From Escherichia coli (lineage in GTDB: Bacteria > Pseudomonadota > Gammaproteobacteria > Enterobacterales > Enterobacteriaceae): a DNA stretch of 64,000 bases. The stretch is from NCBI RefSeq assembly GCF_024298765.1, contig NZ_CP101211.1. One strand, written 5' to 3'. Shown here one piece after another: positions 1,419-59,420 of this stretch. Positions within the stretch are counted from its first letter, which is position 1, and each line of letters begins with the position of its first letter. The translations under genes were made by a program, and so were the position numbers. The notes beneath the pieces were generated by a model. It saw only the letters and a program-made list of their open reading frames with translations, did not search any database and had not been told where the DNA came from.

Positions 1419-2200
1419 GGCACTGTTGCAAATAGTCGGTGGTGATAAACTTATCATCCCCTTTTGCTGATGGAGCTGCACATGAACCCATTCAAAGGCC
1501 GGCATTTTCAGCGTGACATCATTCTGTGGGCCGTACGCTGGTACTGCAAATACGGCATCAGTTACCGTGAGCTGCAGGAGATGCTGGCTGAACGCGGAGT
1601 GAATGTCGATCACTCCACGATTTACCGCTGGGTTCAGCGTTATGCGCCTGAAATGGAAAAACGGCTGCGCTGGTACTGGCGTAACCCTTCCGATCTTTGC
1701 CCGTGGCACATGGATGAAACCTACGTGAAGGTCAATGGCCGCTGGGCGTATCTGTACCGGGCCGTCGACAGCCGGGGCCGCACTGTCGATTTTTATCTCT
1801 CCTCCCGTCGTAACAGCAAAGCTGCATACCGGTTTCTGGGTAAAATCCTCAACAACGTGAAGAAGTGGCAGATCCCGCGATTCATCAACACGGATAAAGC
1901 GCCCGCCTATGGTCGCGCGCTTGCTCTGCTCAAACGCGAAGGCCGGTGCCCGTCTGACGTTGAACACCGACAGATTAAGTACCGGAACAACGTGATTGAA
2001 TGCGATCATGGCAAACTGAAACGGATAATCGGCGCCACGCTGGGATTTAAATCCATGAAGACGGCTTACGCCACCATCAAAGGTATTGAGGTGATGCGTG
2101 CACTACGCAAAGGCCAGGCCTCAGCATTTTATTATGGTGATCCCCTGGGCGAAATGCGCCTGGTAAGCAGAGTTTTTGAAATGTAAGGCCTTTGAATAAG
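1419..2200 (+). mobile_element. IS26, lacking the last 38 bp including its right terminal repeat
   Basis: Left repeat GGCACTGTTGCAAA at 1419 and intact tnpA; sequence diverges from the other IS26 copies after TTTGAATAAG at 2200 instead of continuing ACAAAAGGCTGCC...TTTGCAACAGTGCC. Confidence 0.85.
1464..2186 (+). CDS. tnpA: IS26 transposase (supplied ORF has a 6-aa N-terminal extension)
   Basis: Translation [31 protein letters not shown]... matches IS26 Tnp26. Confidence 0.95.
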   Translation: MLMELHMNPFKGRHFQRDIILWAVRWYCKYGISYRELQEMLAERGVNVDHSTIYRWVQRYAPEMEKRLRWYWRNPSDLCPWHMDETYVKVNGRWAYLYRAVDSRGRTVDFYLSSRRNSKAAYRFLGKILNNVKKWQIPRFINTDKAPAYGRALALLKREGRCPSDVEHRQIKYRNNVIECDHGKLKRIIGATLGFKSMKTAYATIKGIEVMRALRKGQASAFYYGDPLGEMRLVSRVFEM

Positions 2201-2226
2201 GAGAGCATGAAAAACCTCGGGGCAGC
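2201..2226 (+). repeat. Left terminal inverted repeat of the ISKra4-family element
   Basis: About 21 of 26 positions match the reverse complement of 5026-5051. Confidence 0.7.
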
Positions 2227-2292
2227 CATCGAATGATGCCATCTACAGGGGTTAAAATAACCACCATCATTTCATAACAATACCTGCTGACT

Positions 2293-2883
2293 ATGAAGAT
2301 CTACGTCATCAAAATAGCAGTTCATGGAGTCAGTCCGATGGTCTGGCGTCGGCTGAGAATTGCTGCCGACACGTCACTGGCCGCGCTTCACTTCATTTTC
2401 CAGATAGTGCAGGGCTGGGGGGACGACCATCTCCATCAATTTCACATTTATGGCAAAGATTACGGTATCTCCTACGAAGGAGGCATCGGTTTTGTCGATA
2501 ATCCGTTCCGGGTCGTGATTGATGATTTTGCTTTTGATGCTGGCGATCGCTTTACCTATGAATACAATTTCTTTGAGCACTGGCTTCATGACATTCGTGT
2601 TGAGGCCATTTATGAAAACTCTACGCTGAAAGCGCCGTTTTGTATAAGCGGCCATGGTATGCCCGGAGCCACAGCTGCGGATGAGTTCGATAAAACCCTG
2701 GCGTTTCTTGAAGCTATCGTTAATGCGGATGATGAAACAACGGTCGGCGAGATCCGCCCTTTTGCTGACGACCTGGATGCTGTCAGGTTCAACCGCCACA
2801 AAATCAACCGGCAACTGAGCAGGCTCGACCTTGCATCTCCGGTACTGGAGCCTGAAGTTATCTGGCTGGGCCGTCGTCGCTGA
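2293..2883 (+). CDS. Passenger protein of the IS (pRiA4b ORF-3-like), function unknown
   Basis: 196-aa ORF inside the IS boundaries, upstream of the recombinase and transposase genes; family name from memory only. Confidence 0.6.
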   Translation: MKIYVIKIAVHGVSPMVWRRLRIAADTSLAALHFIFQIVQGWGDDHLHQFHIYGKDYGISYEGGIGFVDNPFRVVIDDFAFDAGDRFTYEYNFFEHWLHDIRVEAIYENSTLKAPFCISGHGMPGATAADEFDKTLAFLEAIVNADDETTVGEIRPFADDLDAVRFNRHKINRQLSRLDLASPVLEPEVIWLGRRR

Positions 2884-3019
2884 CTGATGTCTATAAAGGT
2901 ATACGTTTTCAGCATGCCTCTCAGATCCCCGAAAAAATGTCTATAAACCTCCCTAAATCAGTGTTTATGGATTATTCTTTAAATCTCTATGATGTTTAAA
3001 GACCTTCCGGAGGTTTTGC

Positions 3020-3592
3020 GTGCAATATGCCTACATCAGGGTAAGCTCGGCCGATCAGAATACGGCCCGTCAGGAAGAGGCATTGTCAAAGGCGGGTTTT
3101 CAGCCTGATAAAATTTGTGTTGAGCATGCCAGCGCGAAGGACACAAACCGCCCGGGGTTACAGGAACTCCTGGGGCAATTACGCCCTGGTGATACGCTTC
3201 TGGTTCATTCCATCGATCGCCTTTGCCGGAATATGTCGGATATGTGCGCTGTCACCACCCGGCTTCGTGACCAGGGCGTTACCCTTATTTTTCTGAAAGA
3301 GCAGCTGACGTTCAGCGCCGGCACAAACAATCCGATGCAGGAACTGCAGCTGCACATGATGTCGGCATTCAGCCAGTTTGAACGAGCCTTACTGAAGGAA
3401 AGGCAGGCCGACGGCATCGCCGCGAAAAAAGCACGGGGTGAAAAAACAGGGCGCCCCGGCGCCGATATCAAAAAGATCCAGGAAATTGACGCACTCAGAA
3501 GCAGAGGGGTCAGGCTCAGGATCGCCTGCGACCATGCGGGCCTTGGCGTTTCCACATATTATAAGCTTCGTCACCAGATGAACAACCAGTAG
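3020..3592 (+). CDS. Serine recombinase (resolvase/invertase family)
   Basis: N-terminus YAYIRVSSADQN with the catalytic Ser context and a C-terminal helix-turn-helix; 190 aa. Confidence 0.8.
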   Translation: MQYAYIRVSSADQNTARQEEALSKAGFQPDKICVEHASAKDTNRPGLQELLGQLRPGDTLLVHSIDRLCRNMSDMCAVTTRLRDQGVTLIFLKEQLTFSAGTNNPMQELQLHMMSAFSQFERALLKERQADGIAAKKARGEKTGRPGADIKKIQEIDALRSRGVRLRIACDHAGLGVSTYYKLRHQMNNQ

Positions 3593-3625
3593 CCGGGAGA
3601 TAGTCATCCACCACAGCAGGAGGCA

Positions 3626-5020
3626 ATGATGCAACTGACGCTCCAGATAGTCATCACCGATGAATCAGGCTCCAGTCGAACGGAGGAACTGATGACAATC
3701 CAGAAATCAGGGGAGACCCGGAACGACATCGGATTATCGGTGTCAGAATCCAAGCTGTTGCTGAATACGGTCCAGCAGTCGGTGGTCCAGCTGCAGGCAG
3801 ACGAATATACTCAACACCATATCCGGTGCCCTCACTGCCTTGCTGCGCGCAGAATCAAAGGCAAACAGAAAATACGGTACCGGACGCTGTTTGGCGTTAT
3901 TCCGGTATCCGGGCTTCGGGTGTACCGGTGCCGTTGTGAAGAGAGTGATACAAAGACAGTCAGTTTGCTCAGCGACTGGGCCGGCGATTATTCTCACCCG
4001 GCACTGAAATATATTGAAACCCGCTGGGCCTCGATGATCTCCTATGAAATGACGACTCGTCTGCTGAAAGATATTCTGCCGGTGGGCCACAGCCTGAATG
4101 CCTCAACGGTGAGGAATCATTTATGCCAGGTGGCGCAGCGTCTTGACGCTGAGGCTGAAGCTCATTCAGGTTTTCTTTCCGGCTGCCCCCGCGACTGGGG
4201 GAACCTGCCCAGGCCAGGAAAACCGCTTGTGGTGGGTATAGATGGTGGTTATGTTCGCGATCGGGATGACAAAAAGCGTAATTTTGAAATTATTGCCGGG
4301 AAGTCTTTTTCCGTTGGTGCGCCTGCTGACACCCGCCGCTTCGGTTTTGTTCAGAAGGATGACTGTCATCCGGAACGCAGGCTCATGACCCACCTTTCAG
4401 CGCAGGGAATGCAGGCCAACCAGCAGATATTTTTTCTGTCCGACGGCGCGGATAATCTCAGGGACCTCCAGTTCGGTATGTACCCTGAGTCAACGCATGT
4501 GCTGGACTGGTTTCATATCACCATGAGGCTGAAGGTGCTCATGCAATATGCCCGGGGACTGCTGGTATCAGATCCAGAGGCGGGGAGTAAAGTTCTGGCA
4601 CTGCTGGAAAGCATTAAACGATATCTCTGGCATGGCAATGTTGTCGCTGCGCTGGAACATATTGATAATTGCGTTATGTATTGCGATGACCCTGAACTCA
4701 GCTATCCTAGCCTGAAATCCCTGCAAAAACATCTGGATGAAATGTATACCTACATCCGGAATAATAAGATGATGATCCCAAACTACGGCGAAATGCGTCG
4801 GTACGGAGAGCCGGTATCAACCGCGTTTGTGGAATCCACGATCAATGAAGTGATCGCCAGACGAATGGCCAAAAAGCAGCAGATGCAGTGGAGCAGAAAA
4901 GGGGCTCATTATTTGTTACAGACCCGGACCGCCGTTTTGAATAACGAACTGCAGGATAAATTTGTCTGCTGGTATCCGGGTTTTCAAAGTGACGGGAAGG
5001 GACCAGCGATGGCAGCATAG
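3626..5020 (+). CDS. ISKra4-family DDE transposase
   Basis: 464-aa ORF with an N-terminal Cys cluster (CPHC...CRC) and a transposase-like core; sits against the right inverted repeat. Confidence 0.75.
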   Translation: MMQLTLQIVITDESGSSRTEELMTIQKSGETRNDIGLSVSESKLLLNTVQQSVVQLQADEYTQHHIRCPHCLAARRIKGKQKIRYRTLFGVIPVSGLRVYRCRCEESDTKTVSLLSDWAGDYSHPALKYIETRWASMISYEMTTRLLKDILPVGHSLNASTVRNHLCQVAQRLDAEAEAHSGFLSGCPRDWGNLPRPGKPLVVGIDGGYVRDRDDKKRNFEIIAGKSFSVGAPADTRRFGFVQKDDCHPERRLMTHLSAQGMQANQQIFFLSDGADNLRDLQFGMYPESTHVLDWFHITMRLKVLMQYARGLLVSDPEAGSKVLALLESIKRYLWHGNVVAALEHIDNCVMYCDDPELSYPSLKSLQKHLDEMYTYIRNNKMMIPNYGEMRRYGEPVSTAFVESTINEVIARRMAKKQQMQWSRKGAHYLLQTRTAVLNNELQDKFVCWYPGFQSDGKGPAMAA

Positions 5021-6686: not shown

Positions 6687-6754
6687 CGCTTAAAAATAAT
6701 AAAAGCAGACTTGACCTGATAGTTTGGCTGTGAGCAATTATGTGCTTAGTGCAT

Positions 6755-6825
6755 CTAACTTTGTTTTAGGGCGACTGCCCTGCTGCGTAACATCGTTGCT
6801 GCTCCATAACATCAAACATCGACCC
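6755..6825 (-). other. attI1 recombination site of a class 1 integron, apparently with no cassette
   Basis: 5'-conserved segment ...GTCGCCCTAAAACAAAGTTAGAT followed on the cassette strand by what I recall as the start of the qacE cassette, cut by IS26 at 6686; boundaries approximate. Confidence 0.6.
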
Positions 6826-19479: not shown

Positions 19480-19962
19480 TTAACCCTTTTTCCAAATTTG
19501 ATAGCAATAGTTAATGTTTGAAGTAAAGTGTTGCTCAAAAACAACTTCGAAGGTATTTGGAATACTCGGGAAGAAAACATCCCCCTCTGGCTCGATGTCG
19601 ATCGTCGATAAGTGGAGCGTAGAGGCCATGGGTAATGTTTCTCGGTAAATTTCTCCGCCACCAGACACTATAACGTGACCGGTGAATTCAGCTAGCCTGT
19701 CCATGGCCTCTTCGATTGACTGAAATACAACTACATTGTCATCATTTGATGTCCAACCTGAGCGGGTAACGACCGCGTATTTCCTATTGGGGAGTGCGCC
19801 CATAGATTCAAACGTCTTGCGACCCACCAGAAGCCACTGATTGTAGGTCAATGCTTTAAAAAGTAGCTGCTCCCCTTTCGCGGACCAGGGTATGTCTGGA
19901 CCGCAACCAATCACGCCGTTTTTCGCTTTCGCAGCCATCAATGATACTTTCAAGGTTCTCAT
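19480..19962 (-). CDS. dfrA14: Trimethoprim-resistant dihydrofolate reductase DfrA (dfrA5/dfrA14 group)
   Basis: 160-aa [58 protein letters not shown]...; first cassette after attI1. The allele is a best guess from the dfrA-arr-cmlA order. Confidence 0.7.
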
Positions 19963-19967
19963 CCTGG

Positions 19968-20040
19968 GTTAACTTTGTTTTAGGGCGACTGCCCTGCTGC
20001 GTAACATCGTTGCTGCTCCATAACATCAAACATCGACCCA
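19968..20040 (-). other. attI1 (second copy) with the GTTAACC cassette junction
   Basis: Same 5'-conserved segment as 6755-6825 but joined to the dfrA cassette. Confidence 0.6.
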
Positions 20041-49421: not shown

Positions 49422-50153
49422 ATGGATGCTTTCAATCTGCTGTGGAGCATTACGGGGGTAGCTTTCATTATCCTTATTTTCGTCGTGTTGCTGTGTCTGT
49501 TGGGTTTTATGACCTCTGCCATAGCGGAACGGCGGACTGCAAAGGCAATTGAATCTGGGCTTCCTGAAGAAGCTCAGGGGCTACTTAGTGATCTCACCTT
49601 TCAGTTGTCGGCTCATAGCACTACTCAGGTTGATCACATTCTCGTAGCCCCACATGGTATATACGTCATAGAGCAGAAAAACTACGTAGGCAAGCTCTAC
49701 GGTACTCTGGAGGAAAGCCACTGGCGGAAATGGACTCAGTCCCGAACCCTCAAGTTGCAGAACCCGTTTAAGCAAAACCAGGGGCACATCAGGGCTATTC
49801 AGTCTGCTCTTAAGGCTAGAGAACTGGAATGTATCAATGTCGTCATCATAAACGGACGTTGTAAGTTTGATGGCATCAAGCCGGAATGGTTATGTATGGG
49901 GATGGACGATTTTATCCATAAAGTCAAACAACGACGAGGGCTACGGTTGTTCACACCGGAGTCTGTTCAGCACATCTGTTCGGTGTTGAAGTCAACAAGG
50001 AAGTCGCCAGGGCTCTATACGGACCTTACTCATATTCACAACATAACGACAAAGTACAAAGCCCCGATGAAATTCGAGCAACGAGTAACATACATTCTGC
50101 TCAACTTTATCCATTATCTGTGGGCAAGTCTGTTCACTAAGCAGAAGCCTTAG
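49422..50153 (+). CDS. NERD-domain protein (nuclease-related domain) with an N-terminal transmembrane helix
   Basis: DHILVAPHGIYVIEQKNYVGKLYG...W matches the NERD core; translationally coupled to the peptidase gene. Confidence 0.65.
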   Translation: MDAFNLLWSITGVAFIILIFVVLLCLLGFMTSAIAERRTAKAIESGLPEEAQGLLSDLTFQLSAHSTTQVDHILVAPHGIYVIEQKNYVGKLYGTLEESHWRKWTQSRTLKLQNPFKQNQGHIRAIQSALKARELECINVVIINGRCKFDGIKPEWLCMGMDDFIHKVKQRRGLRLFTPESVQHICSVLKSTRKSPGLYTDLTHIHNITTKYKAPMKFEQRVTYILLNFIHYLWASLFTKQKP

Positions 50154-50439: not shown

Positions 50440-50802
50440 TCAGGGGTTTAACGCCGGAATATTTTGCCAGGCCTCCTGCAAGGTCTGCAAGACTTCTACA
50501 AGTGATAGTGACGGCCACAGGACTGTTTCCGTCATTATCACTCCAGGTGGCTCGCACTCTACTGGTACCAGAATTAAAACAACACGAGTTCCTTTTACCT
50601 GGTAGGCAAGGTTTACTGCCGGTTGGCGGTAGGAGGCCAGTACACCCTCACCATATTGAGCAGGGTTACTTGCCCAGTTCCGCACCATTGCATACACCTG
50701 AGGCATATACCGACTATCCAGATCCCCTTTGGGCCGTCTGAACGGCACGATTTCTTCTGAGCGGTAGGTGGTCGTTGTTGTATTGGTTGTCATCTTTGTC
50801 AC
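50440..50802 (-). CDS. Hypothetical protein
   Basis: 120-aa ORF with a GGGGAGG ribosome-binding site. Confidence 0.4.
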   Translation of the reverse strand: MTKMTTNTTTTTYRSEEIVPFRRPKGDLDSRYMPQVYAMVRNWASNPAQYGEGVLASYRQPAVNLAYQVKGTRVVLILVPVECEPPGVIMTETVLWPSLSLVEVLQTLQEAWQNIPALNP

Positions 50803-50858
50803 CTCCCCTGTTCGTCCATTTAGAGTTTTAAGCTGCTTTACACATCACACTCAACTGA

Positions 50859-51143
50859 TTATTTAAGCTGGTCATCGTCTCTGGCCAGCATAGCCCAACC
50901 ATTCGACTGGTTTTCGCGGGAGTAAGGATTCATTTCAAAATAACTATCTACCGCGTCGCTGTCCGCAACAGAACTGTTGTTAGCTCTCTTTGAACCCTGA
51001 ACCACTACAGCATCAACCTCTGCGGCTTTCCCGTTGCGCTGTACCAGGATTTTAACCGTCTTGGGCTTACGTCTTGCGAGCAGTTTGTTGGCGATAAAAA
51101 GCACAACAATCCAGGCCAAAAGCACGTATAAAAATTTATTCAT
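50859..51143 (-). CDS. Small membrane protein
   Basis: N-terminal transmembrane helix; AAGGAGGG ribosome-binding site. Confidence 0.5.
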   Translation of the reverse strand: MNKFLYVLLAWIVVLFIANKLLARRKPKTVKILVQRNGKAAEVDAVVVQGSKRANNSSVADSDAVDSYFEMNPYSRENQSNGWAMLARDDDQLK

Positions 51144-51305
51144 AATGCCCTCCTTTGTATGTGATTATTATACCTGCTTCCATTGCAGGCCAAACAGGTT
51201 CGGTGTATGAAAAATAGACTTCTCTCCGGCGTATAGCAATCTACTTACTGATCTGTTTTCGTATCAAACTGTATGGCATAACCGAGGGGCGTACGTGGTG
51301 AGTCA

Positions 51306-51318
51306 GAAAGTTACTTTT
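51306..51318. repeat. Backbone palindrome copy (12 of 13)
   Basis: GAAAGTTACTTTT upstream of the 94-aa membrane protein gene. Confidence 0.7.
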
Positions 51319-51499
51319 CCGTAATAGTTAATTTCAGATCCTTCTTCCAGTTACGCTTCAGTATAAAACCGATACCCTCTAATTCAGCATCCTTCACGTT
51401 TAATACGCTTCACTTTAAGGCAGGGCTTTTCGGTTGATATGAATTCTTTTTCCGGTTGCTGGACATGGGTTTCATCCTGATAGTTAAAATTGCAGGCTA

Positions 51500-51802
51500 T
51501 CAGTCACCACCACCACCTCCTCCTCCTCCTCCTCCACCGCCACCATCACAACCACCAGCTATGCTATTTTCACCATTACAATCACCTCCGAGGGGGTTCA
51601 AATGGCTGCTCCCCTGTAGATGGTGTCCTTGCCAGATCGAACCCGAACCAGCGCCTCCTGAGCGTCTTTGCTTGCCCTGAGGCAATTGTGCAGGCTCACC
51701 AGCACCGGCGGTCCCAAAAATGTCCCGGGCAATTTTATAAAGAAGGTAAAAAGGTACGCCCAGCATCATAAAAAAGATTACTGAAAATATTACACGTTCC
51801 AT
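51500..51802 (-). CDS. Small membrane-anchored protein with a Gly-rich C-terminal tail
   Basis: AGGAG ribosome-binding site 7 nt before the ATG; N-terminal transmembrane helix; the tail is encoded by the CCN repeat. Confidence 0.45.
   Translation of the reverse strand: MERVIFSVIFFMMLGVPFYLLYKIARDIFGTAGAGEPAQLPQGKQRRSGGAGSGSIWQGHHLQGSSHLNPLGGDCNGENSIAGGCDGGGGGGGGGGGGGD
51507..51545 (+). repeat. Trinucleotide (CCN)13 simple sequence repeat
   Basis: caccaccaccacctcctcctcctcctcctccaccgccacc. Confidence 0.8.
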
Positions 51803-52234
51803 TGATGATCTCCTGTCTTGTGAGAGACCAGTTATATCAGGGTGATTCAGTATTTCCGTTTAGAAAAGAGTACTAATTTGGCCCTGTTCGATCTTAATTT
51901 GCCATCCGGGAAAAAGTCATAGGGATAGGCCTGCCAGAGTCAATAACTTCCAGTGATCTGGAGGAGACCCCGGCTCTCTGAGCCCTCATGGATGGTACGG
52001 CTTTACCCCCTGTAAACAGATTCACGTTCCGCAGGACAAACATCGACTACTGACGTCTCATATTTGCTGACGCTAATCCGACGTCTCATTGCCGTCTGCT
52101 TGTTTTCTTTAAAGGGTGTATTAGACGAATATCAAATCGGAATGGTAGGGGATGTGTGGGCACCATGCCCGGCCCTCTTTGAGCATCTGAGAGATTGGAG
52201 ACCTAGCCGGGTAAGATAGCTACTTTCTTACGGG

Positions 52235-52603
52235 TTACCCTTCAAATCCAAAGACGAAACGGACGCTGCCGTTCTCCACGTGGAGACGCTTTACTTCTTC
52301 GACAAATTCCTGGATCACCTCTCCGGCGTTATCGGGTGGTATGGCTGACAAAATTTCTTCCGAAGTCAGCCATGAGTATGAATGTTCACCGAATAAATCA
52401 TCATCTTCGGACGGTATATCATCAGGTAATCCGCGTAATGCGTGGATAAAAACTGCTGATGTGCTCGCCCTTTCACGATCTACATCAAATCCGAGCCAGG
52501 CAAAGTGGAGATATGATCGGTCCCCTTTATAATTGCTTGATAAATTAATCCATTTACCAGGCTTTTCTTCCCTTTGAAATCGCCAGCAGATATCAACGCC
52601 CAT
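52235..52603 (-). CDS. Hypothetical protein
   Basis: 122 aa; last gene of a seven-gene minus-strand cluster. Confidence 0.4.
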   Translation of the reverse strand: MGVDICWRFQREEKPGKWINLSSNYKGDRSYLHFAWLGFDVDRERASTSAVFIHALRGLPDDIPSEDDDLFGEHSYSWLTSEEILSAIPPDNAGEVIQEFVEEVKRLHVENGSVRFVFGFEG

Positions 52604-52767
52604 TAAGAAACTCCATTACTATCGTTCGTATGAGATAACTATCATTTCAGAATACTATGACTTCTTCCCGTATAGAACTAATCGCTCACGCCAACTGGGC
52701 GAAGCCAACCGGTTCCGCCACTTCGCTCATTGGTTTTTAGGCGTAAGCACTGAAGCCAGTCTCCATG

Positions 52768-53310
52768 CTAACTGGCGAGCCTGCGAAAGTCAGACTCGTT
52801 GTTATAAAGCGGCATATCGTAAGCGGTGTCTGAAATGAACATGCGGATCTGCTCAAGCGTCATGCCACAATGAAAACGGTTTACGCTCACATTGGCCCGG
52901 GGGAAGTCAGCACAAAACGCATTCAAAACATTTTCATGGACAATGCCAATGTTGATCAACGCAGCTGGCCCGTTGTCACGGAAGGATACGACACGGAATC
53001 CCCCATACCAGCCTGAATGGGAGAAAAATGAAAATGCGCCGGATGCCAGACCATTAGACAGGTCATAGCGCAATTTCCCGCACAGAGACTGGCTGTCTTT
53101 GCTGTACACGCGATTAATGAAAATACCGGGACCAACTTCTACCGGCTGCTTGTTGCTTGCTAAACACGGAAAGCCCACCAGCGAAACCTCCCTTTCTCCT
53201 GACCAGTTTACCTGATACCCGGCAGTGAGAAAGTCCGTCAGTTCTACGCCAGAAAGAGCATTAATGGCCGCGATATCGGTAGTCAAAATATTTACGTTTT
53301 TCATATTCAT
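52768..53310 (-). CDS. Hypothetical protein
   Basis: 180 aa. Confidence 0.4.
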   Translation of the reverse strand: MNMKNVNILTTDIAAINALSGVELTDFLTAGYQVNWSGEREVSLVGFPCLASNKQPVEVGPGIFINRVYSKDSQSLCGKLRYDLSNGLASGAFSFFSHSGWYGGFRVVSFRDNGPAALINIGIVHENVLNAFCADFPRANVSVNRFHCGMTLEQIRMFISDTAYDMPLYNNESDFRRLAS

Positions 53311-53371
53311 CTCATCTTTATTCTAAAGTGCGTTTTTTGTCTATCAGCCCGAGGATTGAAAATTTGAATAT

Positions 53372-53809
53372 TTAATGTGACAGATAAATACCTGTCACTT
53401 TTTCAAAAACAGCCTGTAATTGAATATCGAGAGAGTTCATTTTAAAATCCACCAGCTCAGCTTTATTATCGCAAACCAAATAAAAATAGGAGTCAAATGC
53501 GTCTGTATCTTCATCTTTAAAAATACGGAAGGAATTAATTTTATCATGCCCTTCAAATTCGGCATGAATACCATAGCGAACCGAGCCGTCATCGAACTGA
53601 ACAACCCGTCGTACAGAATTAATCCGGACGTACTGTTTTAAGGCCCTCGCGAAATCGGCATTTAACGCCAACGCTCGTAAGATTGAATCAGCGGTTTCAT
53701 TCTGCTTTTTACGATCGTATTCAAATATCCCACAGCCGGTGTTACGAAAGACCGGCTGAAGAGCATTAACCAGGTTGAAGGAATCCACGTTTCTGTCGTT
53801 TCTGTACAT
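53372..53809 (-). CDS. Hypothetical protein
   Basis: 145 aa. Confidence 0.4.
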   Translation of the reverse strand: MYRNDRNVDSFNLVNALQPVFRNTGCGIFEYDRKKQNETADSILRALALNADFARALKQYVRINSVRRVVQFDDGSVRYGIHAEFEGHDKINSFRIFKDEDTDAFDSYFYLVCDNKAELVDFKMNSLDIQLQAVFEKVTGIYLSH

Positions 53810-53853
53810 GAGATATCTCCTGCCCCTCCGCTATACGAAGGGGCTTGATAGGG

Positions 53854-54150
53854 TTACTGCCAGGCTGCGATCACTTCTTCGCACTGGAAATGAGATAAGC
53901 ACTGCTGGAGTAGAAGAGCCAGCACCGCTGTGTTAGGGACGCGATTGTTACACCACGCGTTGAAAAGCAGCTGCCATGGACCGGCATAATACCCGGCCAG
54001 TTTCTTTTTTTGTTTAGCTGTACGGCAGCGGGAAATGGCCTGCTGATAAAGGCTTTCATTCTCATCACCAGCCCGTTTTTGCAGAGTGCGATAAATATAC
54101 GAATAAAGACTGTCAGAACAGTTTGAAGCGTACGCCAGTTGTTTTTTCAT
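53854..54150 (-). CDS. Hypothetical protein
   Basis: 98 aa. Confidence 0.4.
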   Translation of the reverse strand: MKKQLAYASNCSDSLYSYIYRTLQKRAGDENESLYQQAISRCRTAKQKKKLAGYYAGPWQLLFNAWCNNRVPNTAVLALLLQQCLSHFQCEEVIAAWQ

Positions 54151-54270
54151 AATACCTCCTGTTTAGAAGTATTATATGTAAACAGCCTCAGCGGCTAATA
54201 ACCCGTAGCAATATAATTTGCATTTTTTCTATTTCTGAAGACGCTTTTTAAATTAATATTTACTGAGTTA

Positions 54271-54549
54271 TCACAACTTATTATTCTTCCCGTCTGCTGT
54301 TTTATTAATCCCCCAGTTAGTAATCACGCCAAGTCGGCGCAATTTTTCACGTTGTTCATAAATAAAAAAATCGCCAAGGCAGTCTTTTAAAACTTCACTA
54401 TCCTGATATTTTATTTTTTGAAGCATCCTCGCAACTATGGCGCGTTTCAGGAATATGGCTGCATCAGACTCAAGCATTTGTGAGGACTGTCTGACGGTCT
54501 CCTGCATGTCGACGATACTGCTGAGCTTTCGTCTGACCACGCTTAGCAT
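54271..54549 (-). CDS. Hypothetical protein
   Basis: 92 aa. Confidence 0.4.
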   Translation of the reverse strand: MLSVVRRKLSSIVDMQETVRQSSQMLESDAAIFLKRAIVARMLQKIKYQDSEVLKDCLGDFFIYEQREKLRRLGVITNWGINKTADGKNNKL

Positions 54550-54733
54550 AGTGTCCGGGAACCGCTTAGCGGCTGAATGTAACCCGCAACAACGTTACGC
54601 ATTGTTTTACTCACTGCAATTTTCCATTTAAGTCTGTTTGTTCCACCAGCTGCTAACATCAGCGTTATTCATCCTGAGGTTTCGCCCGCGATTGACAGAT
54701 CAGAGGCAGCATGGATGAAATTGCCAGAGTAGA

Positions 54734-55015
54734 TCACTGCATACGCGAATAGTGGTTTGTATTCAGTTCTGCGTTTGCCTGCTTTTCCAGTGCTGTCATA
54801 ACCCGGCGGAGCATCGCCAGAGCCTGAACAGGCGAGCTCCCAAACTGCACTTTCACTTCAGCCGTATCATGATCCTGAATCAGGTCGAGTATATTCACTT
54901 CGATCCCTGCCCCGTTTTCATCTTTTGCCGTGCACTGAATACTTACCCGGGTCACCGAATCCGTCAGGACTGGCAGTGGGTTAGTTTTGTCTACGTTGAT
55001 AACAGCCTTCTTCAT
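54734..55015 (-). CDS. Hypothetical protein
   Basis: 93 aa. Confidence 0.4.
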   Translation of the reverse strand: MKKAVINVDKTNPLPVLTDSVTRVSIQCTAKDENGAGIEVNILDLIQDHDTAEVKVQFGSSPVQALAMLRRVMTALEKQANAELNTNHYSRMQ

Positions 55016-55080
55016 TGCCCTGTTTCCCCTTGTCCTGAAAAAGTTACCGACCCGTCCGGATGGAGGGGTCGGTCAGAAAA

Positions 55081-56265
55081 TCATGACTGTCCCTTGTTCA
55101 TCTTATCAGCATGCTTACGCAGGTACTCTTTCAGGTCAGCATGAGCGTTGATGATATCGTTCATTTCATCATTGGTCAGAACAAGCGTGTAAGTATCAGT
55201 ACTGACAGATTCACCTTCTTTAAGCTTGGCTTCTTCAGCAATACGTTCAAAAATCGGGATCGCGGTGTCTGCAATGACGGTCACAGTCTTTTTGTTCAGA
55301 ACGCTGGACATGGAAGGTGCTTTACCTGCCGGGTTCTGTTTAGGAGCGCTGTCCTTTGGAGCTGGAGCCGGTTCCTGTACCGGTGGCGTATCCAGCGTCT
55401 CCGTATTGCTTTCATCGTTCAGTTGATCCGGTACCGGGGTGTTATCGGTAGTATCATCTGCCGGTTGCTCAGCACCGATGTTTTCCGGAGTCTGCGGATC
55501 TGCCATGCGCTCTTCTACCTTGGCAGCTTTGACGAATTTCAGCGTGTTTTTCGTCGCCTTGCCATAGATGGAGATCGCTTTGTTGATGTTATCTACCGCA
55601 TCCTCACCGCTGTACATATACTCGTCCAGTGCAACGTACATGCTCACCTGATCGCTCACAAGCATGGTCTGTAGTTCAGAAGGCAGGTCCAGTACGCGAA
55701 CCATCTGGCGAAGATGCTGCTCTGATTTACCACGTTTTTTTGCCAGTTCCGCAAAGGTCTTAGGCTCTTCTTTATCTTCAACCAGACGCTTAATTGAAAG
55801 CGCTTCAGCTACGACAGACAGCGCCAGGTTGGAGTTGCCGGTCAGGGTGAAGAGTTCTGCTTTTGAAGCGCTACCGCGAAACTCTTCGCAGCGAATACGA
55901 GTAATGCGTTCACGCCCTTCTGCTTCCAGCTGGCGGTTTGCAATAGCGATGGAACGGATACGGCAAGCCCCCTGACGCAGTACAGGTACGCCATTAACCA
56001 TCTGAACAACGATAGGCGTCACGCTGAACGGGTCTTCCATGTAGGCATCGGCCAGGCTGTTCAGGTGTTCCACAACGTGAGGCATTGAATAGTAGAGCTC
56101 GCCCATACCGGCCGTGCGGGTGTTAAAGCCTTCCTGCTCTACAACAACCGAAGGGTCAATGATAAGGCCGTTGCCTTTACGGGCACCGTTACCAGTGCGT
56201 TCCAGGTAACCACGAAGGCTGATTTCGTTGCTGTTGTTTTTTACTTCAGTTTCGATTGCGGACAT
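55081..56265 (-). CDS. ParB-like nuclease-domain protein with an acidic, Pro-rich linker
   Basis: N-terminal region ...FNTR...IVVQMVNGVPVLRQGACRIRSIAIA resembles the ParB/Srx fold (GxRR-type motif); 394 aa. Confidence 0.5.
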   Translation of the reverse strand: MSAIETEVKNNSNEISLRGYLERTGNGARKGNGLIIDPSVVVEQEGFNTRTAGMGELYYSMPHVVEHLNSLADAYMEDPFSVTPIVVQMVNGVPVLRQGACRIRSIAIANRQLEAEGRERITRIRCEEFRGSASKAELFTLTGNSNLALSVVAEALSIKRLVEDKEEPKTFAELAKKRGKSEQHLRQMVRVLDLPSELQTMLVSDQVSMYVALDEYMYSGEDAVDNINKAISIYGKATKNTLKFVKAAKVEERMADPQTPENIGAEQPADDTTDNTPVPDQLNDESNTETLDTPPVQEPAPAPKDSAPKQNPAGKAPSMSSVLNKKTVTVIADTAIPIFERIAEEAKLKEGESVSTDTYTLVLTNDEMNDIINAHADLKEYLRKHADKMNKGQS

Positions 56266-57366: not shown

Positions 57367-58311
57367 ATGAAACTTTCCCGTCAGACGACTTCTGATACTT
57401 CTGTTGATGGCCGTTCACGCGCATATGCCTGGGGCCGTGTCCATTATTTCATTATCGAACATGCACCAATGGCTGAGCTGGTCGCTATTGACGAGCTGCT
57501 GGAAAAAGCTGGCTGGAGCAATGACGGCTGTCCGAACTATGAGAAAGATGACGAGTTTGGTAATGCTGGTTACAGCTGTGGTTACTGGATCGATATTGAC
57601 AGCGTGGGAAGCTTCAAGGCTGACTACAAACGTCTTAAGGGGGAGATTAGTGCGCATATCGCCTCAAAGGCGGCAGAGGTGGAGATCCGCGTACTGGACT
57701 CGATGTCCGACAAAGAATGTAAAGATGTTGCCTCGGTGGCATCTACTGTTCGCCGTGACTTACGTACGCAGTCCGAATCGCTTCATTCACTGCGTACAAT
57801 CGTAACGGTTGATCATTACAATCCCTATGTGACCACCAGCCGCCCGCTGAGCATTTCCGCCTGGACACTTATCCACGACTGTCTGAAAACAGGCACCATC
57901 AATGACGTCTGTTCACGGTTGAGTTCATTAATCCTGCACTCTGAAGCCGCGATTGCCCGTTGTAAGGGAAGCTCCGACTACTCTTCGGAACACGCTCAGC
58001 TATCGTTTTTTGCTGGTAACGACTATGTCACCAGACGCACCCTTGTTGATGCAGCTCACGAAGAGGCTCTGCGAATGAACCGCCGCTTTGATGAACGCAT
58101 TGCAATGAACGCGGATTCTGATGCCAGAAGGCTCCAGTGCGAATTCAACCTTAGCAACCATGTCGTACAGCGTAGGACCGTTGAATCTGCTCATATCCAG
58201 GCACTCAATGAAGACGTCACCCGTTCACAGGCGGAACCACGCTGCCCTGGAAAGCTTCTTCTGAATATGACCAGTCATGAGGAAGTGCGGGACTCACTGA
58301 GCGCCTGTTAG
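57367..58311 (+). CDS. Hypothetical protein
   Basis: 314 aa. Confidence 0.45.
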   Translation: MKLSRQTTSDTSVDGRSRAYAWGRVHYFIIEHAPMAELVAIDELLEKAGWSNDGCPNYEKDDEFGNAGYSCGYWIDIDSVGSFKADYKRLKGEISAHIASKAAEVEIRVLDSMSDKECKDVASVASTVRRDLRTQSESLHSLRTIVTVDHYNPYVTTSRPLSISAWTLIHDCLKTGTINDVCSRLSSLILHSEAAIARCKGSSDYSSEHAQLSFFAGNDYVTRRTLVDAAHEEALRMNRRFDERIAMNADSDARRLQCEFNLSNHVVQRRTVESAHIQALNEDVTRSQAEPRCPGKLLLNMTSHEEVRDSLSAC

Positions 58312-58407
58312 TCCAGCGACACCCCCTGCGGCTCTACTACCGGGCCGCAGTCTGCTCCTGCCCAGATGGTGCCAGTGGTGTAATGAATTTGTTTAATAAG
58401 GCTAAGT

Positions 58408-59010
58408 ATGATGAATAAAGAACAACTAATCGACAAACTGGAACGCGTGGTATGTGGTCAGTACTCCTACGAAATGCAGGAGCTTGCGTATTCGGCCCTC
58501 TGCTGCATTAAAGGCACCCCGGACGACTGCGCTAAGTTCCCTGTTACGCGTCCGCTGCCTGACACCTTAGTGGACGTATGGGACGAAATCGGGCAATACC
58601 TTGGCACAGGCAAAGCCATTGAAACTCGCAGTTGCGGCGTTTCGCTTCTGCTTCATGGACACTGCTACGATTCAAATCATGTGCTTTACTGGCGCAATGC
58701 TGGCGCACTTCCAGCAGCTTGCGATACGCCACTGGCTGGTGGGTCTCGCAAACTGTTCACCTGCTCAGCCTGTGGAGTGGACGGTCTGGATGAACCACCT
58801 GAAACCAGTTGCCACTGCTGCACAGAGGGGGCCCACTGGGTTGAGAGCAGGCTCTTCACCTCCGGGCAGGCAGACCCTGAAGAATTTAGACCCGTGGCGG
58901 TCGTGAAAGAGTGTGCAGGCTCAACGCCGGATGATCGGCTCATCTGGAGTGTGATTGAACAGCTCAACGGCGAACTGGCGGAAGGCGATAAACTATTTAA
59001 GCGACGCTGA
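58408..59010 (+). CDS. Cys-rich hypothetical protein
   Basis: 17 Cys in 200 aa, including CSACG and SCHCC clusters. Confidence 0.45.
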   Translation: MMNKEQLIDKLERVVCGQYSYEMQELAYSALCCIKGTPDDCAKFPVTRPLPDTLVDVWDEIGQYLGTGKAIETRSCGVSLLLHGHCYDSNHVLYWRNAGALPAACDTPLAGGSRKLFTCSACGVDGLDEPPETSCHCCTEGAHWVESRLFTSGQADPEEFRPVAVVKECAGSTPDDRLIWSVIEQLNGELAEGDKLFKRR

Positions 59011-59063
59011 CAGATCACGGCAGCATTTATAACAGACGAACTCCAGAATAATTTAAAGCAACC

Positions 59064-59420
59064 ATGAACATGAAAAAGCCCAAAGCTGCATTACAGAATG
59101 CCATGAAAGAAGATGTGCCAGCTGTGACACAGATTCAGATGCGATCTACGGTTTCCAGAAAGGTTCGCTATGTAAAACAGGCAAATCGAGAGGGTCTGAA
59201 ATTATCTGAGTGGATGTCGCGGCATCTCGACGCTGTCTGTGATACCGCAGATGAGATTCATAAAGGCAAACGCTCAACTCCGGTTGCGCCTGGGAAGATT
59301 CCCCCAGAGGTATACCAGGTGATATACGATCAGTGCGGCGGGTTCGTGGAGTGTGATGCTAATGCCCAGGTTATCTGGGAAGCCTGCCGTAATGCCATTC
59401 TTAACGGAGACAAAGGGTAA
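59064..59420 (+). CDS. Hypothetical protein
   Basis: 118 aa. Confidence 0.4.
   Translation: MNMKKPKAALQNAMKEDVPAVTQIQMRSTVSRKVRYVKQANREGLKLSEWMSRHLDAVCDTADEIHKGKRSTPVAPGKIPPEVYQVIYDQCGGFVECDANAQVIWEACRNAILNGDKG

Follow-up and report, generated by a model that had tools for sequence, protein, structure and literature searches.

Here, we describe a small plasmid gene whose polyglycine tail varies in length, by whole codons, between otherwise near-identical IncHI2 plasmids. It lies in a stretch of 64,000 nucleotides of the Escherichia coli contig NZ_CP101211.1 (NCBI RefSeq assembly GCF_024298765.1), referred to as the window in the following, and is one of three open reading frames (ORFs) on the minus strand, g3, g2 and g1, which are present at positions 50440-51802 where a first-pass annotation had placed them. 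The best-supported view of this trio is that of genuine, ancient and accessory protein-coding genes of the IncHI backbone, forming an unstudied conserved module beside the relaxosome operon of all IncHI plasmids. On the whole, we find it rather probable that these are backbone genes and that g3 encodes a membrane-anchored protein whose slipping glycine tail serves as a flexible spacer of uncritical length.

A glycine tract that changes length by whole codons

The window is IncHI2 plasmid backbone. The 1.7-kb locus of the three genes shares 95-100% identity with about 980 plasmids, 200-450 kb in size, from Escherichia, Salmonella, Enterobacter, Klebsiella and Citrobacter hosts, and an IncHI2A/MOBH/MPF_F typing was found in every plasmid record fetched for the locus. 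The NCBI Prokaryotic Genome Annotation Pipeline (PGAP) annotates the same three coding sequences (CDSs) as 'hypothetical protein' in pSA186_MCR1, the locus of which is identical to that of the window.

The g3 protein ends in ...IAGGCD-G13-D, i.e., with a tail of the form Cys-Asp-Gly13-Asp. A run of 13 glycines from a triplet repeat had been described in the first-pass annotation, and codon reading yields exactly 13 such codons, from 51544 down to 51506:

51506-51544, minus strand: 13 Gly codons, GGT GGC GGT (GGA)6 (GGT)4, followed by GAC TGA (codon reading)
51518-51535, minus strand: (GGA)6 perfect tract, with 2-9 units elsewhere (allele comparison)
51506-51517, minus strand: (GGT)4 perfect tract, with 4-11 units elsewhere (allele comparison)

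Tandem Repeats Finder reports the array at 51505-51557 with a period of 3 and 17.7 copies. No other array of this period occurs in the 64 kb, and the tract is no chance feature. Consisting of perfect head-to-tail repeats with a unit in the range of 1-6 nt, the tract is a simple sequence repeat (SSR).

The allele census was based on a 151-nt query centred on the tract. The 976 PLSDB records obtained split into two main classes: approximately 470 are identical to the window allele, and approximately 450 carry a 148-nt allele of the type found in the plasmid R478. Alleles of other lengths were searched by BLAST with synthetic or natural alleles, and 15 PLSDB loci as well as one genome-assembly locus were read directly. 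The pure-tract alleles are as follows:

G9, (GGA)2(GGT)4: pS7627-1
G11, (GGA)4(GGT)4: 4 records
G12, (GGA)5(GGT)4: 9 records
G12, (GGA)4(GGT)5: at least 4 records
G13, (GGA)6(GGT)4: window allele, approximately 470 records
G14, (GGA)5(GGT)6: 10 records
G14, (GGA)4(GGT)7: 5 records
G15, (GGA)8(GGT)4: 2 records
G16, (GGA)9(GGT)4: 1 record
G16, (GGA)3(GGT)10: 2 records
G17, (GGA)3(GGT)11: pP136-1

These eleven alleles range from G9 to G17. Of the pure-tract records, which number roughly 530, at least 42 (~8%) are length variants. Their flanks show 0-1 mismatch to the window in 793 nt, with the exception of pATCC43845, which has three, and all verified in-frame variants retain the ORF and its stop codon. 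Two records with +1 and +2 frameshifts were left out of the count because their assemblies look error-prone. As the lengths vary on flanks that hardly differ, the tract is the mutational hotspot of the locus. The first-pass annotation had expected a repeat that can change its length in frame, and had named an invariant length among related plasmids as the observation that would speak against this; the comparison carried out here finds G9 and G11-G17 on near-identical flanks in public IncHI2 plasmids, and the repeat is thus variable. At NCBI, the tract-length variants of g3 are spread over at least 8 different WP_ accessions.

The number of units varies in both sub-tracts, a pattern characteristic of slipped-strand mispairing. 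The alleles with four GGA and five GGT units, (4,5), and with five and six units, (5,6), were each found on slightly different flanks, which suggests a recurrent origin, with recombination as the alternative. A switch of the reading frame or of promoter spacing, as in phase variation, was not found, since all verified changes comprise whole codons. The repeat is an in-frame length polymorphism and not an on/off switch.

In the other half of the IncHI2 plasmids, the R478 type, the tract is interrupted and reads GGA GGA GGT GAC GGA (GGT)4, which results in a G6-D-G5-D tail. This version is far more uniform: nearly all sampled matches fall into one identity/length class, and the rare variants comprise a few with G5-D-G5-D or G6-D-G6-D. 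Repeat interruptions generally stabilise tracts, and the uniformity of the R478 type is in line with this rule. A similar picture is known from bacterial SSR or contingency loci, where perfect short repeats likewise differ in unit number between otherwise identical genomes and where tract interruption accompanies stability. Unlike these loci, however, g3 has an in-frame unit of 3 nt that contributes one residue each without on/off switching, and it belongs to a plasmid backbone instead of coding for a surface antigen or for restriction-modification.

In the stretch 51506-51535 and downstream to 51470, (GGA)6, when read on the coding strand, also forms overlapping AGGAGG motifs that resemble Shine-Dalgarno (SD) sequences. 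The +1 frame right after the tract reads GTG GTG GTG GTG ACT GAT AGC CTG CAA TTT TAA, and frameshifted database products such as ...GGGGGGVVVVVVTDSLQF follow this frame.

The g3 protein and its coding strand

The features of g3 besides the tract are:

51500-51802, minus strand: g3 CDS, 100 amino acids (aa), identical to WP_000442694 (ORF list, PGAP)
51810-51814, minus strand: g3 SD sequence AGGAG, 7 nt before the ATG (sequence inspection)
51737-51793, minus strand: predicted transmembrane (TM) segment of g3, residues 4-22, VIFSVIFFMMLGVPFYLLY, mean Kyte-Doolittle (KD) value 2.24 (KD hydropathy)

The TM segment is followed by 78 hydrophilic residues, 44% of them Gly or Ser, which constitute a low-complexity chain of linker and tail. 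Basic residues past the TM segment are K23, R26, K44, R46 and R47. According to the positive-inside rule, g3 may adopt an N-out/C-in topology with a cytoplasmic C-terminus, the charge bias being weak.

Slippage of a triplet keeps every frame, and in-frame variation alone is no coding evidence. Over the tract, the ORFs of the plus strand, in a poly-Pro and a poly-His/Leu frame, start with TTG and lack an SD sequence. In comparison to two more divergent IncHI2-like copies, the substitutions in g3 are distributed over codon positions 1/2/3 of the minus frame as 1/1/7 and 3/5/10, and PGAP calls the minus-strand g3 CDS throughout the plasmid records examined. From its SD sequence and ATG start, the bias to third codon positions, the synteny and the architecture of the counterparts with their conserved tail (see below), the minus strand is, as far as such signals tell, the coding strand at g3. 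This agrees with the first-pass annotation, which had raised the plus-strand Pro-rich frame as a possible competitor. The exact 100-aa g3 was absent from a collection of 15 billion proteins in which both neighbours occur on more than 1000 contigs. The handling of low-complexity proteins may be the cause of this absence.

Counterparts in IncHI1 and related plasmids

The order of a 181-aa gene, a g3-like gene, g2 and g1, facing NERD-S49-DtrJ-like-TraD, is kept in the IncHI1 plasmids R27 and pF8475 as well as in three other divergent relatives, which come from assemblies and a metagenome. In all of them, the trio is co-oriented, converges on NERD-S49-traJ-traG-traI and shows homology in g1 and g2. 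The synonymous divergence (dS) between IncHI1 and IncHI2 is saturated (dS >2 for g1). In R27, the trio is located at 96807-98112 in the same position and orientation (WP_000925846, WP_001091368 and WP_000205408). g1 is 73-78% identical to the IncHI1-type proteins (73% for R27), and g2 is 45-47% identical over its full length and 58-60% over the N-terminal half (R27).

The protein in the g3 position of IncHI1-type plasmids comprises 77-88 aa and has an N-terminal TM segment, a basic patch RNKK/RARNKK and a Gly/Ser linker. A strong charge signal points to a probable N-out/C-in topology of this protein. Its tail in R27 is composed of Cys, Gly and Asp and ends with GGGGD; in g3 and the IncHI1 counterparts alike, one or two Cys are embedded in Gly. 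The IncHI1-type C-terminus GDAGGGCGGGGD is invariant among proteins that are 59-67% identical overall, despite synonymous GGC/GGT differences, which argues for purifying selection on the Cys/Gly/Asp tail. For the gene as a whole, the ratio of nonsynonymous to synonymous divergence (dN/dS) is 0.43-0.65. Unlike the triplet tracts of IncHI2, the IncHI1-type tail uses mixed Gly codons (GGT GGC GGA TGT GGG GGC GGT GGT), and it varies by duplication of a unit of 8-9 residues, whereas the IncHI2 g3 varies by triplet slippage.

Disruption of g3 and expression of the trio

In R478 (NC_005211.1), the IncHI2 prototype, g3 is interrupted after codon 49 by the insertion sequence (IS) IS10/ISVsa5, an end of Tn10 (~1700-3030 of its locus, equivalent to ~51655 of the window). 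The resulting IS10-g3 fusion ORF of 64 aa, ending with LMNPLMIFIKIIKLR, is found on 460 contigs. Plasmid pEGY49_MCR-1.1 exhibits an internal g3 deletion of ~220 bp (3040-3060 of its locus, ~51530-51750 of the window), the distal end of which lies inside the GGA tract, and the Gly repeat may also be a deletion endpoint. R478 is typed as conjugative, and it is known to be self-transmissible. Based on the IS10 disruption, the spread of the fusion ORF and the deletion in pEGY49_MCR-1.1, g3 is dispensable and accessory, being needed neither for replication nor for transfer. It is full-length in 938 of 975 PLSDB matches (~96%).

Expression data stem from a microarray study of R27, in which the H operon is listed as R0122-R0115 (PMC7366339). 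These eight genes match the eight RefSeq genes from mobI to the NERD gene, and by gene order R0114, R0113 and R0112 would be the counterparts of g1, g2 and g3, respectively. At 25/37 degrees C, signals of 71/102 (R0114), 2633/2687 (R0113) and 92/165 (R0112) arbitrary units were reported, with a detection threshold of 100 (PMC7366339, Table S3). In mid-log cultures in lysogeny broth, R0112 and R0114 are thus at the detection limit (PMC7366339), and the R0113 signal indicates that the g2 counterpart, if mapped correctly, is constitutively and strongly expressed in R27. This is consistent with a TATAAT upstream of g2, in a promoter scan whose matches did not exceed those in shuffles. Furthermore, R0112-R0114 were not derepressed in an htdA mutant, in which the adjacent H operon was up 5-11 fold (PMC7366339). 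With this mapping, the trio would lie outside the transfer regulon.

The genes g1 and g2

The features of the two downstream genes and their signals are:

50440-50793, minus strand: g1 CDS, 117 aa, WP_000210769, soluble (ORF list, PGAP)
50799-50806, minus strand: g1 SD sequence GGAGGTGA, 5 nt before ATG 50793 (sequence inspection)
50859-51143, minus strand: g2 CDS, 94 aa, WP_001032029 (ORF list, PGAP)
51078-51134, minus strand: predicted TM segment of g2, residues 4-22, mean KD 2.32 (hydropathy and AlphaFold2)
51149-51155, minus strand: g2 SD sequence AAGGAGG, 5 nt before the ATG (sequence inspection)
51164-51193, minus strand: g2 promoter-like site, TTGGCC-18-AATAAT overlapping TATAAT (consensus match; site count not above shuffles)

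All three genes hence possess strong ribosome-binding sites at correct spacing, and two of them, g3 and g2, an N-terminal TM helix, which is what the first-pass annotation had seen. g1 has no N-terminal hydrophobic segment (best mean KD 1.35). Its start is most likely ATG 50793 and not the GTG 50802 of the ORF list, which falls within the ribosome-binding site. Two motifs of the protein are conserved, VPFRRPKGDLDxRY close to the N-terminus and WQNIPxLNP at the C-terminal end. Its AlphaFold2 model is an alpha/beta fold with a mean predicted local distance difference test (pLDDT) score of 76.5, for which neither a fold match nor a sequence-family match was obtained. A HMMER search against 1.8 billion representative proteins returned five real relatives only, all of the IncH type; the long repetitive hits P0073 and P0074 from this search were spurious.

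In g2, a strongly basic juxtamembrane segment, ARRKPKTVK, comes after the TM helix; beyond it lie a possible beta-hairpin and a C-terminal half that is disordered and poorly conserved. The strong charge signal suggests, by the positive-inside rule, an N-out/C-in topology. AlphaFold2 models a helix at residues 3-24 with pLDDT 86-89 and the remainder below 50, so that the helix is the only confident part of the model. In comparison to the IncHI1-type homologs, dN/dS is 0.04-0.16 for g1 and 0.2-0.4 for g2, and selective constraint is thus clearer on these two than on the gene in the g3 position. Pfam, NCBIfam, PHROGs and PADLOC gave no match for g1, g2 or g3; a TMEM208 match on the TM helix of g3 was the sole item of the family search and stayed below threshold.

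No Rfam family was found within the trio locus, and no inverted repeats were detected there. In a promoter and terminator scan, matches were no more numerous than in shuffles, and neither a convincing promoter just before g3 nor a terminator behind it was seen. The 356-bp spacer between g3 and g2 holds two direct copies of TACGCTTCA(G/C)T(A/T)TAA (51352-51366 and 51404-51418), 52 bp apart and upstream of the g2 promoter-like site, which could be a candidate operator. A short ORF preceded by an SD sequence (MKPMSSNRKKNSYQPKSPALK, ~51479-51414) is located in the same spacer.

Gene neighbourhood

The trio represents the final three of about ten small co-oriented genes, headed by a ParB-like gene. 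This array converges on the 3' end of the relaxase/coupling-protein operon, which has the order mobI, hypothetical, MobH relaxase, TraD coupling protein, hypothetical, DUF4400/DtrJ-like, S49 peptidase and NERD protein. The two genes that head the array and close the operon are:

55081-56265, minus strand: ParB-like array head, 394 aa (HTH_ParB; PHROG 1033, E 1.6e-21)
49422-50153, plus strand: NERD-domain protein with an N-terminal TM segment, last operon gene (domain match)

The layout of a ParB-led array may be reminiscent of plasmid leading regions. The NERD region (49422-50153) weakly matches two defence kinases, PglW (BREX) and MAD6, in their N-terminal parts; in pSA186_MCR1, this gene is truncated and ISApl1 adjoins. 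Just upstream of the g3-position gene, IncHI1 has a DUF905 family protein (pF8475, 3410-3646 of the compared locus), and the equivalent IncHI2 slot (window 52235-52603) is occupied by a 122-aa protein that is unrelated to it and matches PHROG models weakly. Apart from the conserved terminal trio, the array is thus mosaic. Elsewhere in the window, the resistance region has two Rfam AAC_AAD_leader / attI matches on the minus strand (6731-6805 and 19947-20019; 71 and 64 bits), which point to two attI sites of class 1 integrons.

In the literature, no paper was found on the three genes or their protein accessions. Papers on IncHI2 evolution and on leading regions held nothing specific for the locus, and a search with the R27 locus tags led solely to unrelated magnetic resonance imaging papers.

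Possible roles of g3

Implementing these facts, g3 would be a small single-pass inner-membrane protein with disordered, Gly/Ser-rich C-terminal three quarters and a Cys-Asp-polyGly-Asp end. In the IncHI2 lineage of the window, the tail codons would have become two adjacent perfect tracts, (GGA)6(GGT)4, which presumably gain or lose whole units through replication slippage and so give rise to the G9-G17 polymorphism. Since the length variation is tolerated and since composition and acidic C-terminus are conserved, the polyglycine is most likely a flexible spacer or tether, the exact length of which is uncritical. Several points weigh against this reading. The role as a flexible spacer is an interpretation, the proposed topology follows the charge distribution, with its weak bias in g3, and translation of g3 is deduced from sequence, with the signal of the R27 counterpart at the microarray threshold and R0112-R0114 mapped by gene order. 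As IncHI2 plasmids are near-identical, ORF integrity within this group says little about selection. The census relies on BLAST identity and length classes, and its approximate counts refer to records and not to independent mutation events. Finally, BLASTP yielded no alignment between g3 and the 77-aa protein of IncHI1, and hhalign aligned just the 21-residue low-complexity tails of both, with a probability of 57%. However, given the saturated dS and the dN/dS of the g3-position gene, orthologs are expected to be unrecognisable by sequence. The 77-aa protein is a positional and architectural counterpart of g3, and its orthology is probable but unproven.

Two contrasting views of the repeat have to be considered besides the flexible spacer. 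It could be neutral and non-coding, with g3 as a spurious ORF or with the plus-strand Pro-rich ORF (51456-51680) as the real gene. This would fit the conservation of any frame by triplet slippage, the missing g3 in the large protein collection, the marginal expression of the R27 counterpart and the tolerance of an IS insertion. The plus-strand ORF, however, starts at a TTG without SD sequence, the substitutions follow the minus frame, which PGAP annotates throughout, and an ORF with TM segment, G/S linker and Cys/Gly/Asp tail is syntenic across lineages with saturated dS and shows synonymous tail changes; a non-functional g3 is thus quite improbable. Alternatively, the tract could be a tuning knob, at which slippage yields heritable tail-length variants that quantitatively modulate a plasmid trait, for example its fitness cost, the interaction with the host or the binding of a partner, and are sorted by selection. 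Purifying selection on the tail motif in the IncHI1-type lineage is in agreement with this, as are the variability of the tract, which far exceeds that of any other site in the locus, and the occurrence of some alleles in plasmids of unrelated sources, for instance (5,4) with 9 records and (5,6) with 10. We nevertheless hold it to be unlikely, as the allele (6,4) dominates (approximately 470 of approximately 530 records), as the plasmid is retained in R478 and many relatives with a knocked-out g3, and as the shared alleles perhaps reflect clonal descent. Slightly less likely still is the broader proposal that g3 and its IncHI1 counterpart establish an undescribed family of plasmid-borne, membrane-anchored peptides with a Cys/Asp-punctuated polyglycine C-terminus as the functional element. 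In the epidemic IncHI2 lineage, which carries mcr-1 and extended-spectrum beta-lactamase (ESBL) genes, this tail would have been recoded into a hypermutable triplet tract, a heritable and reversible G9-G17 dial that tunes a plasmid-host interaction.

The first-pass annotation had also proposed entry-exclusion or toxin-like factors. Indeed, g2 and g3 are both small, have one TM helix at the N-terminus and are encoded beside the transfer genes of a conjugative plasmid, and a hok-family toxin gene lies ~10 kb off in the same region. Hok-type toxins, TraS and EexA/EexB are likewise small and plasmid-encoded with a single hydrophobic helix. g2 and g3 differ from them in the absence of a family match and of a regulatory RNA, and in their atypical size and tail. 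Entry exclusion of IncHI plasmids has been attributed to the Z operon, a distinct tra operon (PMC7366339) that is located away from the trio. Moreover, the R27 counterparts, as mapped by order, are not co-regulated with the tra genes, and g3 is disrupted in R478, which is typed as conjugative. A Hok-like type I toxin would have up to about 60 aa and an antisense RNA or leader, whereas g2 and g3 have 94 and 100 aa. In addition, both have long hydrophilic C-termini (78 aa in g3), searches at the trio revealed neither an Rfam, antisense or antitoxin feature nor a match in PADLOC, Pfam or NCBIfam, and the g2 counterpart is constitutively high in R27 with no obvious antidote. Both guesses are therefore left without support, and we assign a low probability to either role. 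A precursor of the microcin B17 type, with the Gly/Ser/Cys C-terminus as modifiable core, is less probable still. McbA is a plasmid-borne peptide with a run of ~10 Gly and with Gly-Cys/Gly-Ser motifs. The likeness is one of composition: both are small and plasmid-encoded, with a long Gly run and Gly-flanked Cys or Ser, and Cys within Gly occurs in g3 and the IncHI1 counterparts. BLASTP of g3 against McbA, however, gave no alignment. Unlike McbA, g3 starts with a hydrophobic membrane anchor in place of a leader peptide, and it is frequently disrupted. No YcaO, cyclodehydratase, dehydrogenase or export domain, i.e., no McbBCD-type gene, was found in the neighbours searched (Pfam at 52235-56265, 57367-59420 and the NERD gene; PGAP for the flanks). 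The combination of leader, core and modification or export genes was thus not observed at the locus.

Implications for IncHI2 plasmids

In-frame simple-sequence length polymorphism is already known and small hypothetical membrane proteins are common, so that no new mechanism is described here. Among the major carriers of mcr-1, mcr-9, ESBL and metal-resistance genes are the IncHI2 plasmids, whose near-identical backbones complicate sub-typing and outbreak tracing. The 39-nt tract with at least 11 states on identical flanks provides a ready marker for epidemic IncHI2 plasmids, similar to a variable number tandem repeat. It also calls for caution in pipelines for single nucleotide polymorphisms and indels and in protein clustering, where one gene appears under many WP_ accessions. 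From a biological point of view, the alleles constitute a natural series for probing a membrane-tethered polyglycine tail. If the length of the tail should matter, this would be an unusual case of quantitative, non-switching, repeat-mediated variation on a plasmid.

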